64,000 nucleotides of DNA from Podarcis erhardii (Eukaryota). The stretch lies in the NCBI GenBank assembly GCA_964252035.1, contig OZ176202.1. One strand, written 5' to 3'. Position numbers and translations under genes: made by a program. Below are positions 1 through 5,632 of the stretch, piece after piece. Numbering within the stretch: position 1 is the stretch's first letter; every line of letters starts with the position of its first letter. The notes below the pieces were generated by a model. It saw nothing but the letters and a program-made list of their open reading frames with translations, was not told the origin of the DNA and searched no databases.

Positions 1-75
1 TGTTAAAACCGTGTTTATGGAAGACAATCTTACTCGGCTACTAACGATTGCCAAAGAAGAAGAAGAGTTAGGTAG

Positions 76-468
76 TGTCAGGGAACTGCCATCGGAGAGA
101 GAGGTGGTGGATAAGTTCCATGAGAATAGGAGAGAATCTGCAGCAGAAGGAACCAGCAGGGGGAGTGCAGGAGTCACAGCGGAGGGGAGGCTCTGGGATA
201 CTTCCAGTGACGACAGCGAAGAGGTAACAAGACCCCCGTTAGGAACTCCCACCCTGCGCCGGAAACTGTCACGCAGAGAGTCACGAAAGCGCATGTCTGT
301 CAAACAGCTTTTATGTTGGCGTAGGTTCCGTAGACGCCCACTGTCAGATTCTACCAGCGACTAACGGAGTCATGCTTTGGGGAGCTCCGTTAGTGCCTAG
401 GTTGGGATGACCAACCAAACCCCAGAGGGATCAAGCTTTACGCACAAGCAGCTCATTATCCCATCACA
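76..468 (+). repeat. 5' LTR (393 bp)
   Basis: TGTCAGGGAACT...CCCATCACA; identical by eye to 5169-5561. Confidence 0.98.
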
Positions 469-470
469 GC

Positions 471-481
471 AATCTGACAGT
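471..481 (+). promoter_or_regulatory. Self-priming primer binding site (Tf1-type)
   Basis: AATCTGACAGT, 2 nt after the LTR, is the exact reverse complement of ACTGTCAGATT at 340-350. There is no TGG-type tRNA PBS. Confidence 0.85.
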
Positions 482-514
482 CTCTGAAAGCAGCTTGTGC
501 AAGCAGAGGGCATC

Positions 515-1537
515 ATGAGCGAACCAGCTGGAACCGGAGGTGCAGGAGCTGGGGCTGGAGGAGGTCCAAGCCTGGAAGACAGGTACAGGGCGTTGGAGGT
601 CCAGCTCGCGCTGCAAACGGCGAGGCTCGAGGAGAGGAGGGCTCAAGATGCGGATAAAGGGAAACCCACCCCACTTGCCAGAAAGGTGCCTGGATTGGTG
701 CAGAAATTTGGGGGGGATCCCAGGAACTATCAAGCCTTTAGGACAGAGATGCAATATGCTCTTAACCTACTGTTTGATGACTTCCCTGATGAGAACTCTA
801 GAGTGGCGTACGTGATCGGCCATCTAGAGGGAGGGGCGAGGGACTGGGTGCGGCCCCTGATGGCAGCCAATAATGAAATCTTAAAGGACACTATGAAGTT
901 TTTTCGCGCCATGGACTTGATGTTTTCCAGTGAGATTGAGCAAGGGGTGGTGCGGAGGCAGTTAATGGCGTGTAAACAGGGGAGCCGATCTGTACGTGAG
1001 TACTGGACTGAGTTCAGCATGCTGATTCATAGACTGGGGTGGGACCTTGCGAGTGAACCTATTCAAATGCTGTTTGAAGAAGGGCTCTCTCCGGCAGTGA
1101 AAGATGAACTTTCCCGGGCGCCCAGGGCGGAGTCTATGGATCATCTGACTAAATCAGCGCTGTCCATAGGAGCGCGCCAGGAGGCAAGGGCTTTGGAAAA
1201 GCGGGAAGGAAAAGGGGAACGTTGGAAGGATTTCCGCATTCCAGAGATTCCGGAGCAGCCTTTCCCGCCAGCAGAGCCGATGGAAATTGGAACAGCGCGC
1301 GCGCGCGCAGTTTCAAACACCAGTGAAGGGCGGAAGAAGGAGGGGAAGGGCGCCAAGAGATGTTATCTCTGCCAACAGCCAGGTCACTTTGCCAGAGTCT
1401 GTCCGCAAAGGAAGGAATGGCAAGGAATGGCGGGAACTGTTGGGGGGAAGGAGGAAGGAGAAACAAGCAGCGAGCAAGTAAAAGCCAACGCCTGGCTGCC
1501 AGCATCAGGGCACCGCAGTCAGGCAGAGGAGAAGTGA
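515..1537 (+). CDS. gag: Gag (sushi/PEG10-like capsid, CCHC zinc knuckle), 340 aa from first ATG
   Basis: ORF track 497..1537; first ATG at 515. Motifs: KFGGDPRNYQAF and VIGHLEGGARDW (Ty3/sushi-type capsid), EPMEIG, and CYLCQQPGHFARVC (CX2CX4HX4C) at 1361-1402. Confidence 0.93.
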   Translation: MSEPAGTGGAGAGAGGGPSLEDRYRALEVQLALQTARLEERRAQDADKGKPTPLARKVPGLVQKFGGDPRNYQAFRTEMQYALNLLFDDFPDENSRVAYVIGHLEGGARDWVRPLMAANNEILKDTMKFFRAMDLMFSSEIEQGVVRRQLMACKQGSRSVREYWTEFSMLIHRLGWDLASEPIQMLFEEGLSPAVKDELSRAPRAESMDHLTKSALSIGARQEARALEKREGKGERWKDFRIPEIPEQPFPPAEPMEIGTARARAVSNTSEGRKKEGKGAKRCYLCQQPGHFARVCPQRKEWQGMAGTVGGKEEGETSSEQVKANAWLPASGHRSQAEEK

Positions 1538-4500
1538 ATGTGCCCACGCCGGAACCTCCAAGACCAGCGCTTGTGATAGAGGTGTTGCTGGAACTGTCCA
1601 ATGGACACCCACTAAAGATAAAAGCGCTATTGGATTCAGGCAGCTCCTGTAATTTCATGAGTAAGGAGTTTGCAGCTGAACACCAGATACAGACTATCCC
1701 ATTAAGTAAGCCTTTGCAGGTTACCACGATTGATGGGAGGGAACTGTTGGGAGGAGAAGTGAGCCAGCAGACTGTTCCAATGGTAATGAGGGTGGCAAGA
1801 CACACAGAACTGATAGCGTTTAACGTAGCCACTTTGGGAGGAGCTCCCATTATTTTGGGAATGAGCTGGCTAGCACTACACGATCCTCTAGTAGGCTGGC
1901 ATCAGAGAGTGGTTTCCTTTGGATCAGCACATTGCCTAGAACACTGCAAAGAGGGAGAGGTTCAGGCAGGGGCCAGGGCCACTCTAGCAGGGGTGGAAGT
2001 GATGGGCAAGGGCAAGGTGCCACCACAATATGCTGACTTGATTGACGTCTTTAGCGAAAAGGAAGCAGATAGACTGCCCCCGCACAGACCCTTTGACTGT
2101 CAAATTAACTTACTCCCAGGAGCACAATTGCCAGTGGGCAAGCTGTATGCAATGTCAGACAGTGAAATGCAGGAGTTAAGGGAGTTCATTGACAAGAATC
2201 TCAAGCGAGGTTTCATCAGAGAGTCACGAGCGGTGGGGGGCAGCCCAGTGTTCTTTGTGGACAAAAAACACACGGGCAAACCGAGGCTTGTATGTGACTT
2301 CAGAAGCCTAAATGCAGTGTCAGAACCAGTGACTTTCCCTATGCCTAGAATTGATGACATTCTGACACAGGTGAGAAAAGGGAAAATTTTTACCAAGCTG
2401 GACCTTAGGGGGGCATATAACTTGATACGTGTGAGAAAGGGGGATGAGTGGAAGACCACTATGTTCACCCCCTTGGGGGCTTTTGAGTATTTAGTTATGC
2501 CTTTCGGATTACAAGCGGGCTCCGCCTGCTTTCAATCATTCATGAATCACGTCCTGGGGCCACTGCTCTACAAGAACTGCGTAGCGTTCTTAGATGACGT
2601 CCTGGTGTACTCAGCGAATGAGGAGCAGCATGTGCGAGATGTAAGAGAGGTACTGAGCAAGTTGCGAGAAAATCGGCTGTGGGTGAAACTGGAGAAGTGT
2701 CAGTTTCATACCAGGGAGGTGGAATTCCTGGGGTACCGGTTGTCTGACAAGGGGTTGGCCATGGATCCCAGCAAGGTTCAAGCGGTACTGGAATGGAAAA
2801 CACCAAAGACCAAGAAGGACGTGCAAAGGTTCCTGGGCTTCGGAAACTTCTATAGGAAGTTCATCAAGAACTTTGCCCATTTGACAGCGCCTATCACGGA
2901 TTGTCTTAGTAGCAAAAAGAAATTTGTTTGGACGGAAGAAGCGCAGCGGGCGTTCGAACGCTTAAAGCAGGCGTTTGCGTCGGAAGAGCAACTGTTGCAT
3001 GTGGATCTACAACAACCAATGAGAGTGGAGACTGACGCGTCAGACCGAGCGGTGGGGGCCGTTCTTCTCCAGCCGGGAAAAGATACGTCTGAATGGAAAC
3101 CGTGTGCATTCTTCTCGCGGAAGTTGAACAAATCCGAGAGGAACTACACAGTATACGACCGAGAACTGCTCGCCATTCATGAAGCCTTCCGGAAATGGCG
3201 GCACTTGCTGATTGGGGCGCAGCACAAGGTTCAAGTCCGAACTGACCACAAAAATCTGGAATATTGGAGAACAGCCCGAGTGCTGAACCAGAGACAAGTA
3301 CGATGGGCCCAGGAGTTCTCCAAATTCCACTTTGAGATTCGTTACGTGCCCGGATCCGAGAACGTGAGGGCGGACGCTCTTTCCAGGAAACCTGAGTACT
3401 TAGAGGGGGAGGGAGCGCCCGAGGCAAGGCATGTAATCCCTGAAGACCGCTGGGTGTGTGGGGCGGCATTGGTGGGGCAGAGGGAACTGATAGAGGGTAC
3501 TGAGAACGATGAATACGCCCAAGGGAAACTCAGAGAGCTCCGGAGGGCAGAGGAGAACACAGGGGGGTTTGAAGAAAAGAACGGGGCGTTGTATTACAAA
3601 GGGGCACTGTACATACCCGACGGGGAACTGAGGGGCAGAGTACTCAAGCAGTTGCATGACAGCCCCACCGCGGGACATTTTGGACAGCACAAAACCATGT
3701 GGTTGGTTACCAGGGAGTTTTGGTGGCCCAAGGTGAGGGAGGACGTACGGGAATATGTCAGGGGTTGCGTCAGGTGCCAGCGAGCAAAAGGAGAGAGGGT
3801 GGCGCCAGCGGGGCTATTACAACCCTTACCCACGCCCGAAAGGCCATGGGAGGCAGTATCCATAGATTTTATGACGGACCTGCCAAAATCCAAAGGCAAA
3901 ACAGCTGTCATGGTGGTGGTAGATCTATTAACCAAGATGTGTCATTTTATAGCTTGTTCACATGCAGTCACAGCGGAGGAAACCGCCAAGTTGTTTGTAG
4001 AACATATTTTTAGGTTGCATGGCGCCCCCTTGAGGGTTTTGAGCGACAGAGGGAAACAATTTACTTCCAGGTTCTGGAGGAAACTGATGAGCTTATTACA
4101 CGTAGAACTCAATTTCTCAACTGCTCGGCACCCAGAAACCAATGGGCAAGCGGAAAGGGCAAATGGGATTTTACAACAATACCTGAGGTGTTATGTAAAA
4201 GACAGAGAAAATGATTGGGTGGATAAGTTACCTCTAGCAGAATTTGCCTACAACAACGCGGAGAACGTGTCCACAGGGATGAGTCCCTTTCTGGCAAATT
4301 ATGGGTGTCACCCCCGGGCATTCCCAGGAGAGGGAGGGGAGAGGTGGAGCGTGCCGGCGGCGGAATATTTTTTTGAAGAGATGGAAGCGATCCACCGTCA
4401 GCTTCAACTTAACTTAGAGAAAGCCAAGGAAGAATATAAGAAGCAAGCAGACAAAAATAGGAGGGAAGGTGAAACCATAAGGGTGGGGGACCGGGTGTGG

Positions 4501-5457
4501 TTATCCACCCAAGGACTACCGTTCAAAGGAGGGTGTAAGAAATTGAGACCCAAAAGATTGGGACCCTTTGAGGTCATACAGCAGGTCAACCCAGTAGCAT
4601 TCAAACTCAGGCTGCCCAGTCACATGAAGTTACACCCAGTATTTCACAGGTCATTACTGTCGCCGTACCGAGAGGGACGTGAGTGGGGGGAGCATGAGAG
4701 AGAGGCCACCCAAACGCCCGTGATAGAAGAGAGAGAGCGCGACATGAACGTGGCAGGAATCATTGATTCCAGGTGGAAGGGGAATCAGGTGGAATATCTG
4801 GTAGAATGGGAGGGGGAAGTAGAGTCGGAAAACACTTGGGTACCAGCAGAGGTAGTCAATGACGAGGTTTTAATAGAAACATTTCATCAGCGTTTCCCAA
4901 GAAAACCGCAACCCGTGGCACGATTTAGAAGGGAACACTTTGGTACCACCGATGAGGAAGGAGAGTTTGAAGGGTTCCCTGAGTCAGGGGTGGGTGAGGA
5001 AGCCGACTCAGACGAAGAAGAGGAAGACTGGGAGAGAGACGGTACGCCGTGGCTAGAAGTGTTTGAATCCTCGGACGACGAGGAGAGTTCCTTCAGGGGC
5101 TTTCCGTCCTCACCGCCAGTGGGAGAGGAGGCGGGAGGGGGTGAAGGGGGCCCTGGGGGGGAGGTGGATGTCAGGGAACTGCCATCGGAGAGAGAGGTGG
5201 TGGATAAGTTCCATGAGAATAGGAGAGAATCTGCAGCAGAAGGAACCAGCAGGGGGAGTGCAGGAGTCACAGCGGAGGGGAGGCTCTGGGATACTTCCAG
5301 TGACGACAGCGAAGAGGTAACAAGACCCCCGTTAGGAACTCCCACCCTGCGCCGGAAACTGTCACGCAGAGAGTCACGAAAGCGCATGTCTGTCAAACAG
5401 CTTTTATGTTGGCGTAGGTTCCGTAGACGCCCACTGTCAGATTCTACCAGCGACTAA
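1360..5457 (+). CDS. pol: Pol (protease, RT, RNase H, integrase with GPY/F, chromodomain, acidic/basic tail); -1 frame relative to gag, probably entered near 1481
   Basis: Uninterrupted 1365-codon frame. LLDSGS protease (DSG at 1633), FLDD RT motif (2587-2598), ETDAS RNase H, H-X6-H...CX2C integrase zinc finger, IDF/SDRG/PETNGQAE DDE core, LGPF GPY/F motif, chromodomain about 4741-4908. Confidence 0.96.
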   Translation: MLSLPTARSLCQSLSAKEGMARNGGNCWGEGGRRNKQRASKSQRLAASIRAPQSGRGEVNVPTPEPPRPALVIEVLLELSNGHPLKIKALLDSGSSCNFMSKEFAAEHQIQTIPLSKPLQVTTIDGRELLGGEVSQQTVPMVMRVARHTELIAFNVATLGGAPIILGMSWLALHDPLVGWHQRVVSFGSAHCLEHCKEGEVQAGARATLAGVEVMGKGKVPPQYADLIDVFSEKEADRLPPHRPFDCQINLLPGAQLPVGKLYAMSDSEMQELREFIDKNLKRGFIRESRAVGGSPVFFVDKKHTGKPRLVCDFRSLNAVSEPVTFPMPRIDDILTQVRKGKIFTKLDLRGAYNLIRVRKGDEWKTTMFTPLGAFEYLVMPFGLQAGSACFQSFMNHVLGPLLYKNCVAFLDDVLVYSANEEQHVRDVREVLSKLRENRLWVKLEKCQFHTREVEFLGYRLSDKGLAMDPSKVQAVLEWKTPKTKKDVQRFLGFGNFYRKFIKNFAHLTAPITDCLSSKKKFVWTEEAQRAFERLKQAFASEEQLLHVDLQQPMRVETDASDRAVGAVLLQPGKDTSEWKPCAFFSRKLNKSERNYTVYDRELLAIHEAFRKWRHLLIGAQHKVQVRTDHKNLEYWRTARVLNQRQVRWAQEFSKFHFEIRYVPGSENVRADALSRKPEYLEGEGAPEARHVIPEDRWVCGAALVGQRELIEGTENDEYAQGKLRELRRAEENTGGFEEKNGALYYKGALYIPDGELRGRVLKQLHDSPTAGHFGQHKTMWLVTREFWWPKVREDVREYVRGCVRCQRAKGERVAPAGLLQPLPTPERPWEAVSIDFMTDLPKSKGKTAVMVVVDLLTKMCHFIACSHAVTAEETAKLFVEHIFRLHGAPLRVLSDRGKQFTSRFWRKLMSLLHVELNFSTARHPETNGQAERANGILQQYLRCYVKDRENDWVDKLPLAEFAYNNAENVSTGMSPFLANYGCHPRAFPGEGGERWSVPAAEYFFEEMEAIHRQLQLNLEKAKEEYKKQADKNRREGETIRVGDRVWLSTQGLPFKGGCKKLRPKRLGPFEVIQQVNPVAFKLRLPSHMKLHPVFHRSLLSPYREGREWGEHEREATQTPVIEERERDMNVAGIIDSRWKGNQVEYLVEWEGEVESENTWVPAEVVNDEVLIETFHQRFPRKPQPVARFRREHFGTTDEEGEFEGFPESGVGEEADSDEEEEDWERDGTPWLEVFESSDDEESSFRGFPSSPPVGEEAGGGEGGPGGEVDVRELPSEREVVDKFHENRRESAAEGTSRGSAGVTAEGRLWDTSSDDSEEVTRPPLGTPTLRRKLSRRESRKRMSVKQLLCWRRFRRRPLSDSTSD
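1477..1545 (+). promoter_or_regulatory. Putative -1 ribosomal frameshift element with H-type pseudoknot
   Basis: Stem 1: 1490-1499 GCCTGGCTGC with 1515-1524 GCAGTCAGGC (one G-U). Stem 2: 1508-1513 GGGCAC with 1540-1545 GTGCCC. A-rich run GTA AAA ends 6 nt upstream. Located in the gag/pol overlap. Confidence 0.7.
5155..5168 (+). other. Polypurine tract
   Basis: GGGGGGGAGGTGGA directly abutting the 3' LTR; it lies within the pol reading frame. Confidence 0.8.
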
Positions 5458-5561
5458 CGGAGTCATGCTTTGGGGAGCTCCGTTAGTGCCTAGGTTGGGA
5501 TGACCAACCAAACCCCAGAGGGATCAAGCTTTACGCACAAGCAGCTCATTATCCCATCACA
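5169..5561 (+). repeat. 3' LTR (393 bp)
   Basis: Identical by eye to 76-468; its first 289 nt are in the pol frame. Confidence 0.98.
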
Positions 5562-5632
5562 GGTAGGTAGCTGAATTAGGTAGCTGAATCAAAATCGTCC
5601 CCATCCCCTTTGACATGTTGATTGAGAAATTA

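Follow-up and report, generated by a model that had tools for sequence, protein, structure and literature searches.

Retroviral U3 regions can be both promoter-bearing and coding, and the ORFs that they hold, such as HIV nef and MMTV sag, are separate genes. Lentiviral integrase binds LEDGF through its folded core dimer and not through a linear FxGF motif. Among retrotransposons, pol extends into the 3′ LTR in plant CRM group A, whose LTR-encoded CR motif is a putative targeting motif (PMC3059260), and in the Beta Beetle and Bingo elements (Bingo1-4/7; PMC3605345). Members of the Tf1/Sushi group are self-priming, with a primer binding site (PBS) complementary to the 5′ end of the RNA (PMC6317226). 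In host proteins, the TND-interacting motif (TIM) comprises a helix, an acidic linker of 8–16 residues and an optional FxGF; such helices and linkers are read by many TNDs, and all known ligands of LEDGF and HRP2 carry FxGF, according to the consulted part of PMC9987994.

The window analyzed here, a stretch of 64,000 nt from Podarcis erhardii (contig OZ176202.1), contains near its start a complete LTR retrotransposon (76–5561; Table 1) with TG...CA LTR ends, two 393-bp LTRs with 0 mismatches and a 5-bp target-site duplication (TSD). The pol frame is open over 1376 codons and overlaps gag, and the Pfam order PR-RT-RH-IN with a C-terminal chromodomain places the element among the Ty3/Gypsy chromoviruses. 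It resembles the Tf1/Sushi group (vertebrate V-clade) in its gag, its -1 pol of PR-RT-RH-IN-chromodomain, the 5-bp TSD, self-priming with no tRNA PBS in the element, and an LTR starting with TGTCAG (PMC6317226). On these features, we class it as a self-priming chromovirus of the Tf1/Sushi type. It is also young: the 40 DNA matches that were scored were all near-identical, which makes its family very young, and its closest named protein relatives are Podarcis muralis proteins.

Table 1. Features of the element in the window.
Feature	Position	Strand	Remarks
5′ target-site duplication GGTAG	71..75	+	
5′ LTR, 393 bp, same sequence as 3′ LTR	76..468	+	
Predicted R start / RNA 5′ end and self-primer, PBS-complementary	340..350	+	start site inferred
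Self-priming PBS, 11 nt, 2 nt past LTR	471..481	+	
gag frame, stop to stop: Retrotrans_gag, Ty3_capsid, zinc knuckle	488..1537	+	
pol frame, -1 to gag: PR-RT-RH-IN(H2C2, rve, SH3)-chromodomain-187-aa tail	1327..5457	+	
Chromodomain, first and third cage aromatics lost	4741..4908	+	PF00385 E 7e-10; folded in model
TIM-like motif 1: F-ending helix, 8-residue acidic linker, FEGF	4918..4977	+	dN/dS 0.05
TIM-like motif 2: WLEVF, 9-residue acidic/Ser linker, FRGF	5050..5103	+	dN/dS 0.06
G-rich tract, PPT (about 5155–5168) at its end, translated in frame	5134..5168	+	dS 0.09
3′ LTR	5169..5561	+	
Predicted U3 of 264 nt, coding over its full length; acidic length-variable linker in 5′ half	5169..5432	+	
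U3-encoded basic segment with VKQLLCW helix (5392–5412)	5350..5430	+	bipartite-NLS pattern 5377–5427; dN/dS 0.12
Predicted R start: self-primer also codes last residues; stop TAA 5455–5457	5433..5457	+	
3′ target-site duplication GGTAG	5562..5566	+	

Several features lie beside this organization. At the gag/pol junction (1478–1545), a hairpin and a possible pseudoknot follow GTAAAAG; families C and G have the canonical slippery site GGGAAAC there, whereas the overlap in the window, which belongs to an active family, has no XXXYYYZ heptamer, and its -1 shift site is non-canonical. An antisense frame of 188 codons (4887–5453) mirrors the pol frame. The flank at 2–75 has no stop in the reading frame that encodes the U3 peptide, and an ATG at 17 starts a 116-codon frame into the 5′ LTR, probably by chance.

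The preliminary description of this locus reported that the pol stop lies at LTR nt 289, that 95 codons are wholly LTR-internal and that the PPT is translated; all of this was confirmed in the sequence, the G-rich tract reading as GGGEGGPGGEVD. It also had pol running through the PPT and the entire U3. The whole of U3 is indeed read, and the stop is better placed in R than in U3. The PBS is complementary to LTR nt 265–275, and wherever the PBS differs in full-length copies from other families, the LTR site differs with it, the pairs of B, C/E, D, F, and G being distinct but matching. Because of this covarying pairing, R can be placed at LTR nt 265; U3 would therefore cover all 264 nt upstream as coding sequence, the stop would fall about 23 nt into R, and the last seven pol codons would overlap the self-primer. 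One of the covarying changes falls on a synonymous position of the pol frame, and the PBS pairs with the R-start self-primer in a fold of 340–510. The 3′ U3 is the template for both LTRs, and the same nucleotides must therefore work as a promoter at the 5′ LTR and encode protein at the 3′ LTR.

Three further observations concern the LTR itself. TTTTAT at LTR nt 234 was considered as a TATA box and rejected, as it is absent from family D. The U5 stretch TTACGCACAAG (437–460), kept in families A, B, C, and E, is complementary to the leader at 489–503 right after the PBS; this pairing likely belongs to the self-priming structure, although the sole computed fold paired TTACGCACAAG differently. The LTRs of families A, B, C, and E were without AATAAA or five common variants (5458–5561 in the window), and in families D, F, and G AATAAA lies 69–72 nt from the LTR end.

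The read-through is not confined to the window. Families B, C, D, E, F, and G were collected from the same genome, with the tails of relatives and more distant matches as queries, and read-through was present at 93%, about 75%, 53% and 32–40% tail identity as well as in two further deep branches. The lizard rows grouped into a single clade (SH-aLRT 100) that splits into three deep branches, each with read-through; the trees, each with one mis-cut row (P0003; P0277) and four rows omitted, were used for this clade and its three branches. In the RT-IN tree, whose rows included no named Sushi-ichi or Amn reference element, the lizard rows stood apart from fish Sushi-like proteins and the outgroups. 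In integrase, the depth of the clade amounts to about one substitution per site, and members of the clade have 76–218 LTR-coded residues and keep the position of the stop, as TAA or TGA. Two Podarcis proteins (P0001 and P0003) carry in-frame insertions in U3 and terminate at the same residues, and P0002 is 19 residues shorter. In family C, whose loci were selected on the pre-LTR protein, 24 of 30 keep the frame open across U3 as far as the same end, beyond which stops follow closely on one another. A set in which 149 of 150 had no stop and the family B loci were selected by similarity of the tail protein; this sample is biased and is not counted as evidence. In family F, whose LTRs measure 784 and 754 bp, the LTR-coded part amounts to 218 and 208 codons, and the stop again falls about 21 nt into R. 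The least damaged copies of family D (32–40% tail identity) read through and many older ones have private stops or frameshifts; in family G, U3 is broken in 9 of 17 copies, as is often so in old copies of both families.

Some observations concern the location of the copies. Older copies of families B–E are concentrated, with segmental duplicates, on the 30-Mb contig C19, which may be a W-like, low-recombination chromosome. Twelve near-identical broken fragments of family D, spaced about 20 kb apart (C13:42.56–42.81 Mb), represent a tandem segmental array. Many of the family F copies among the best 150 of 3070 candidates are found near the ends of contigs (C2, C6, C7, C8, C13, and C20), at distances of up to about 1 Mb and in several cases of up to 20 kb; in this sample (best 150 of 3070), a preference of family F, with its atypical motif, for subtelomeres is possible.

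According to our analysis, the U3 coding sequence is under protein-level selection, in keeping with the protein-coding role that the preliminary description had proposed for it. U3 lengths, taken from the PBS match and hence independent of the frame, were 237, 264, 267, 273, 279, 285, 306, 606, and 636 nt, multiples of three in 9/9 intact groups; two copies with private frameshifts (275 and 634 nt) stand outside these groups. The shared U3 indels of family C measure 9 and 6 nt and the private ones shift the frame, whereas six of the seven shared gaps after the stop are not triplets (one 4-nt U3 gap tallied as shared consists of private G-run insertions in two frameshifted copies). Contigs from three other organisms had U3 insertions of 3 nt, plus one of 11 nt in a single contig, and post-stop indels of 1 nt.

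The substitution pattern points the same way. Between the window and 14 family B copies, dN/dS was 0.23 in U3 (bootstrap of one pair, 0.10–0.42) and 0.06 in the integrase core; within U3 it was 0.12 in the basic half and 0.34 in the 5′ half. The corresponding dS values were 0.92 in U3, 0.51 in the core and 0.09 in the PPT and LTR end. Since dS in U3 is not below that of the core, DNA constraint does not explain the low U3 dN/dS; at the G-rich tract and PPT, where dS is just 0.09, constraint at the DNA level is indicated. In the same comparison, U3 pN/pS was 0.35 in the pol frame against 1.0 and 2.2 in the other two frames, and differences by codon position were 18.5, 12.3, and 37.8. An independent pair, F1 and F2, gave a U3 dN/dS of 0.40 (0.25–0.63). 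In the basic half of family C, nonsynonymous to synonymous counts were 13/4 for private and 2/9 for shared changes (p = 0.006; p = 0.04 in family B); the same test found no difference in the pre-LTR tail (p = 1 and 0.56) or in the 5′ half of U3 (p = 0.45 and 0.49).

These data bear on whether a stop was simply lost by chance in a purine-rich region and the result spread by a recent burst. Purine-rich sequence is poor in stops, the frame stays open in 1.4–1.8% of shuffles, and the youth of the family would fit a burst. Dinucleotide shuffles left the frame open in 72/5000 cases for 5104–5454 and in 5/5000 for 4912–5454; openness of the former stretch is thus unlikely, yet on its own not decisive. 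What speaks against chance is conservation throughout a clade of such depth, inherited indels restricted to triplets, dN/dS well below 1 and the kept stop position. The preliminary description had named in advance what a chance loss should leave behind: stops or frameshifts after the chromodomain in sister families and no codon-position bias in U3. The sister families have no stop there and the bias is present, and the case for chance loss therefore fails. Chance loss is refuted unless the conservation signals are DNA-level, which leaves it hardly any credence; the read-through has very probably been kept by selection.

Within U3, an acidic linker of variable length is followed by a kept basic run and a hydrophobic-x-x-L/W-x-C-W helix. 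This C-W motif reads VKQLLCW in the window and LQKWLCW, LRRWVCW, LPRWACW, TSLLNW, or LRHFEGGW in others; 13–18 residues follow it in most peptides, and the distant protein P0148 likewise ends with GLLCWKRR and six residues. AlphaFold places the sole helix of the tail at the C-W motif (pLDDT about 57), the remainder being disordered. LWDTSSDDSEEV, singled out in the preliminary description, is present in the window but is not conserved in sister families, which have LWDASSESSGEV, LRESSSENSGEV, or LQDPSPESSGES instead, and was rejected as a motif. A bipartite nuclear localization signal (NLS) consists of two basic residues, a spacer of 10–12 residues and a stretch with three basic residues in five. 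This pattern fits 16 of 20 LTR peptides, the window included (a 21st row was mis-cut), and a role of the basic U3 end as NLS or nucleic-acid binder is plausible, although basic runs match the pattern easily. A phmmer search of the basic U3 end against PDB gave no match.

The U3 part might then be a mere charged, flexible tail of NLS and linker, kept open since the NLS sits at its end, with the C-W motif mainly core-promoter DNA and the FxGF helices packing on the element's own chromodomain or integrase. Such a tail would suit the 5′ half of U3, which is weakly constrained (dN/dS 0.34–0.48) and ranges from about 35 to 170 residues. In families A–E, the C-W codons (TGYTGG) keep a constant distance of 26 nt upstream of the predicted start site, and because of this fixed spacing part of the C-W conservation could be promoter DNA. 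The first FxGF motif also begins right after the chromodomain. The hydrophobic residues before C-W are, however, kept through different codons, and family F has N-W; in the structural model the tail does not pack against the chromodomain, although the underlying alignment was shallow; and the second motif, 45 residues from the first, is equally well conserved. We consider this explanation quite improbable.

The best-conserved motifs of the tail lie between the chromodomain and the PPT, just upstream of 5104 (4918–5103). In the window they read RFRREHF-GTTDEEGE-FEGF and WLEVF-ESSDDEESS-FRGF. Eight F/G positions of the two motifs are invariant in 11/11 aligned tails, in contrast to the variable x of FxGF and the divergent spacer (window vs. 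B, dN/dS 0.05 and 0.06 in the motifs against 0.20 in the spacer). When the tail was shuffled 20000 times, two FxGF arose in 9 cases. A single motif is present in family G, and also in family F, where its linker is Ser/Thr-rich and non-acidic.

Compared with the described TIMs, the linkers measure 8 and 9 residues in the window and 7–10 in 37 motifs (the search pattern demanded 7–11), both motifs end in FxGF, and the tail is predicted to be disordered, with no secondary structure and low pLDDT from residue 61 on. The aromatic/aliphatic i, i+4/5 helix pattern is kept, whereas the free model has no helix there (pLDDT under 50), and a stricter TIM pattern matched one of the two motifs in the window tail. 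The TIMs of MLL1/KMT2A, JPO2, IWS1, MED1, and CDC7-ASK show the same build, namely a helix with F/V/L/I, an acidic Ser/Thr linker of 8–16 residues and FxGF (PMC9987994). A profile of 35 motifs, gathered with a pattern demanding the F and G residues, was compared with 177635 PDB sequences; its top match was the KMT2A/MLL1 chain of 3U88, an entry that also contains LEDGF, with an alignment covering RRFRAVF...FLGF and an E value of 0.13, which is not significant. Spectrin and a Numb peptide scored similarly to MLL1, the JPO2, IWS1, and PogZ fusion chains in PDB were not matched at E up to 10, and phmmer of the motif stretch against PDB gave one chance match only. CDCA7-family genes of the same genome carry KLADIF-NTPSDDED-FLGF, KLREIF-REDTESENEA-FEGF, and EIAKIF-YEDSDDES-FCGF, of the same build as the tail motifs; the two-motif gene is presumably JPO2, in which two motifs likewise stand in tandem. 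In the lizard element, such a pair of putative TIMs is encoded by a retrotransposon integrase. IBD exons of LEDGF and HRP2 were found in the genome. Complex prediction for the two-motif stretch with the Podarcis LEDGF IBD scored 0.01, with alignments unused and a tool not proven on peptides, and counts neither for nor against binding.

The conserved arm could also bind another host partner, such as TFIIS, ELOA, IWS1, MED26, PNUTS, or a non-TND reader of acidic-aromatic motifs, and serve import, particle assembly or transcription instead of H3K36 targeting. Many TNDs read TIM helices and acidic linkers, the FxGF being optional (PMC9987994), the Numb peptide is among the profile matches, the linker of family F is non-acidic, and no gene-body signal was seen in the flanks of the copies. 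Yet FxGF, invariant in the tails, is tied specifically to LEDGF and HRP2 (PMC9987994), and the nearest look-alikes are MLL1 and the JPO2-like motifs of the host. A different partner seems unlikely, if a more serious contender than a mere charged tail. That the FxGF motifs bind a TND at all has slightly better than even odds.

The comparison with known systems qualifies what is new. The preliminary description had treated the layout as rare; CRM group A and Bingo enter the 3′ LTR (PMC3059260, PMC3605345), and fish relatives apparently do so too. CRM group A has the CR motif in place of a chromodomain and is primed by tRNA-Met, whereas the lizard element has a chromodomain upstream of the PPT and a self-priming PBS. 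The lizard frame spans all of U3 and enters R, and its motifs are unrelated to those of CRM-A and Bingo as far as seen, the CR motif having been compared by description and not by alignment. Likewise, the analogy drawn earlier with retroviral U3 genes holds for the joint use of U3 as promoter and coding sequence; the lizard U3 codes the end of Pol instead, so that the tail continues integrase and is not a separate gene.

Fish Sushi-like relatives have a Y/W/Y cage, a PRGRGRP segment, which we take to be AT-hook-like, and a short end, in contrast to the degenerate cage, FxGF and long LTR-coded part of the lizard clade. Among 48 Sushi-like tails (from 148 new profile-search matches), 13 have a G-run and V followed by 13–53 residues ending in an SPE(F/Y)-like sequence; six of nine Sushi-like proteins looked up carry fish names. 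This suggests that fish Sushi-like pol runs 13–53 residues past a PPT-like stretch and that read-through over a short stretch predates the lizard clade. The SPE(F/Y) end, seen in P0175, P0180, P0191, P0192, P0228, P0259, P0277, and others, is probably LTR-coded and possibly represents an unremarked targeting or phospho-motif.

In full-text searches of openly accessible articles, we came across no vertebrate chromovirus described as coding over its whole U3, nor, within the same bounds, any mention of FxGF/TIM motifs in a retrotransposon integrase; the consulted part of a Ty3 RNA paper does not state where POL3 ends (PMC11381356). Thus, the entry of pol into the 3′ LTR is known in chromoviruses, and coding of the whole U3 in a vertebrate lineage, together with the FxGF motifs, appears to be new.

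The reading that we prefer, at a probability of roughly 50%, is that the tail is a selected, disordered integrase arm that docks on host LEDGF/HRP2, with a basic end for import or contact. The tail would be translated and would remain on integrase or a Pol product in the pre-integration complex, escaping cleavage by the protease. The two helix-acidic-FxGF motifs are predicted to dock on the TND/IBD of LEDGF or HRP2, and phosphorylation of the linkers by CK2 would probably raise binding. Docking would tether the pre-integration complex and bias integration toward H3K36-methylated chromatin, and the U3-encoded basic end would likely provide nuclear import and contact with DNA or nucleosomes. The motifs would thereby take over from a chromodomain no longer able to read methyl-lysine. 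The cage sites of that domain are M, W, and E in the window vs. Y, W, and Y in fish relatives; it lacks the three aromatics of type I and matches what PMC3059260 defines as type II. The element would use the same host reader as lentiviral integrase-LEDGF tethering (PMC9987994) to direct integration to active chromatin; in the PogZ-LEDGF structure (PDB 6EMP), PogZ is a domesticated host gene.

That binding guides integration is a tentative proposal. Equally tentative is the wider scenario in which the lizard clade exchanged methyl-lysine reading by the chromodomain for U3-borne TIM mimics that tether it to LEDGF/HRP2 chromatin, together with a second U3-coded docking helix; this would be an independent invention of the HIV tethering route with the binding mode of host ligands. 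The flanks of the copies had a GC content equal to background, a CpG observed/expected ratio of 0.35–0.38 vs. 0.28 and a repeat cover of 0.22–0.31 vs. 0.15, against a background of 20 chosen round-number, mid-chromosome stretches, cut up, which cannot separate gene bodies from young repeats; the slight CpG excess does not specifically indicate gene bodies. The copy in the window is located beyond a KCNK5-like gene, about 14 kb from its last coding exon. This potassium channel gene, presumably KCNK5/TASK-2 judging from its sequence, occupies about 20000–52400 on the minus strand, with five exons found by motif and a CpG island at 52–54 kb. The target sites are non-random, position 8 after the LTR being A/T in 30/30 copies and position 7 in 26/30.

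To our knowledge, the target choice of vertebrate LTR retrotransposons is almost unstudied, and hundreds of near-identical young insertions are already positioned in this assembly. If the motifs bind LEDGF/HRP2, they would represent a second route of a mobile element to the lentiviral reader, through true motif mimicry. Even without LEDGF/HRP2, one sequence here is promoter, integrase end, self-primer, and protein, with selection measurable on each, and the LTR sequence of the lizard clade should not be treated as non-coding.
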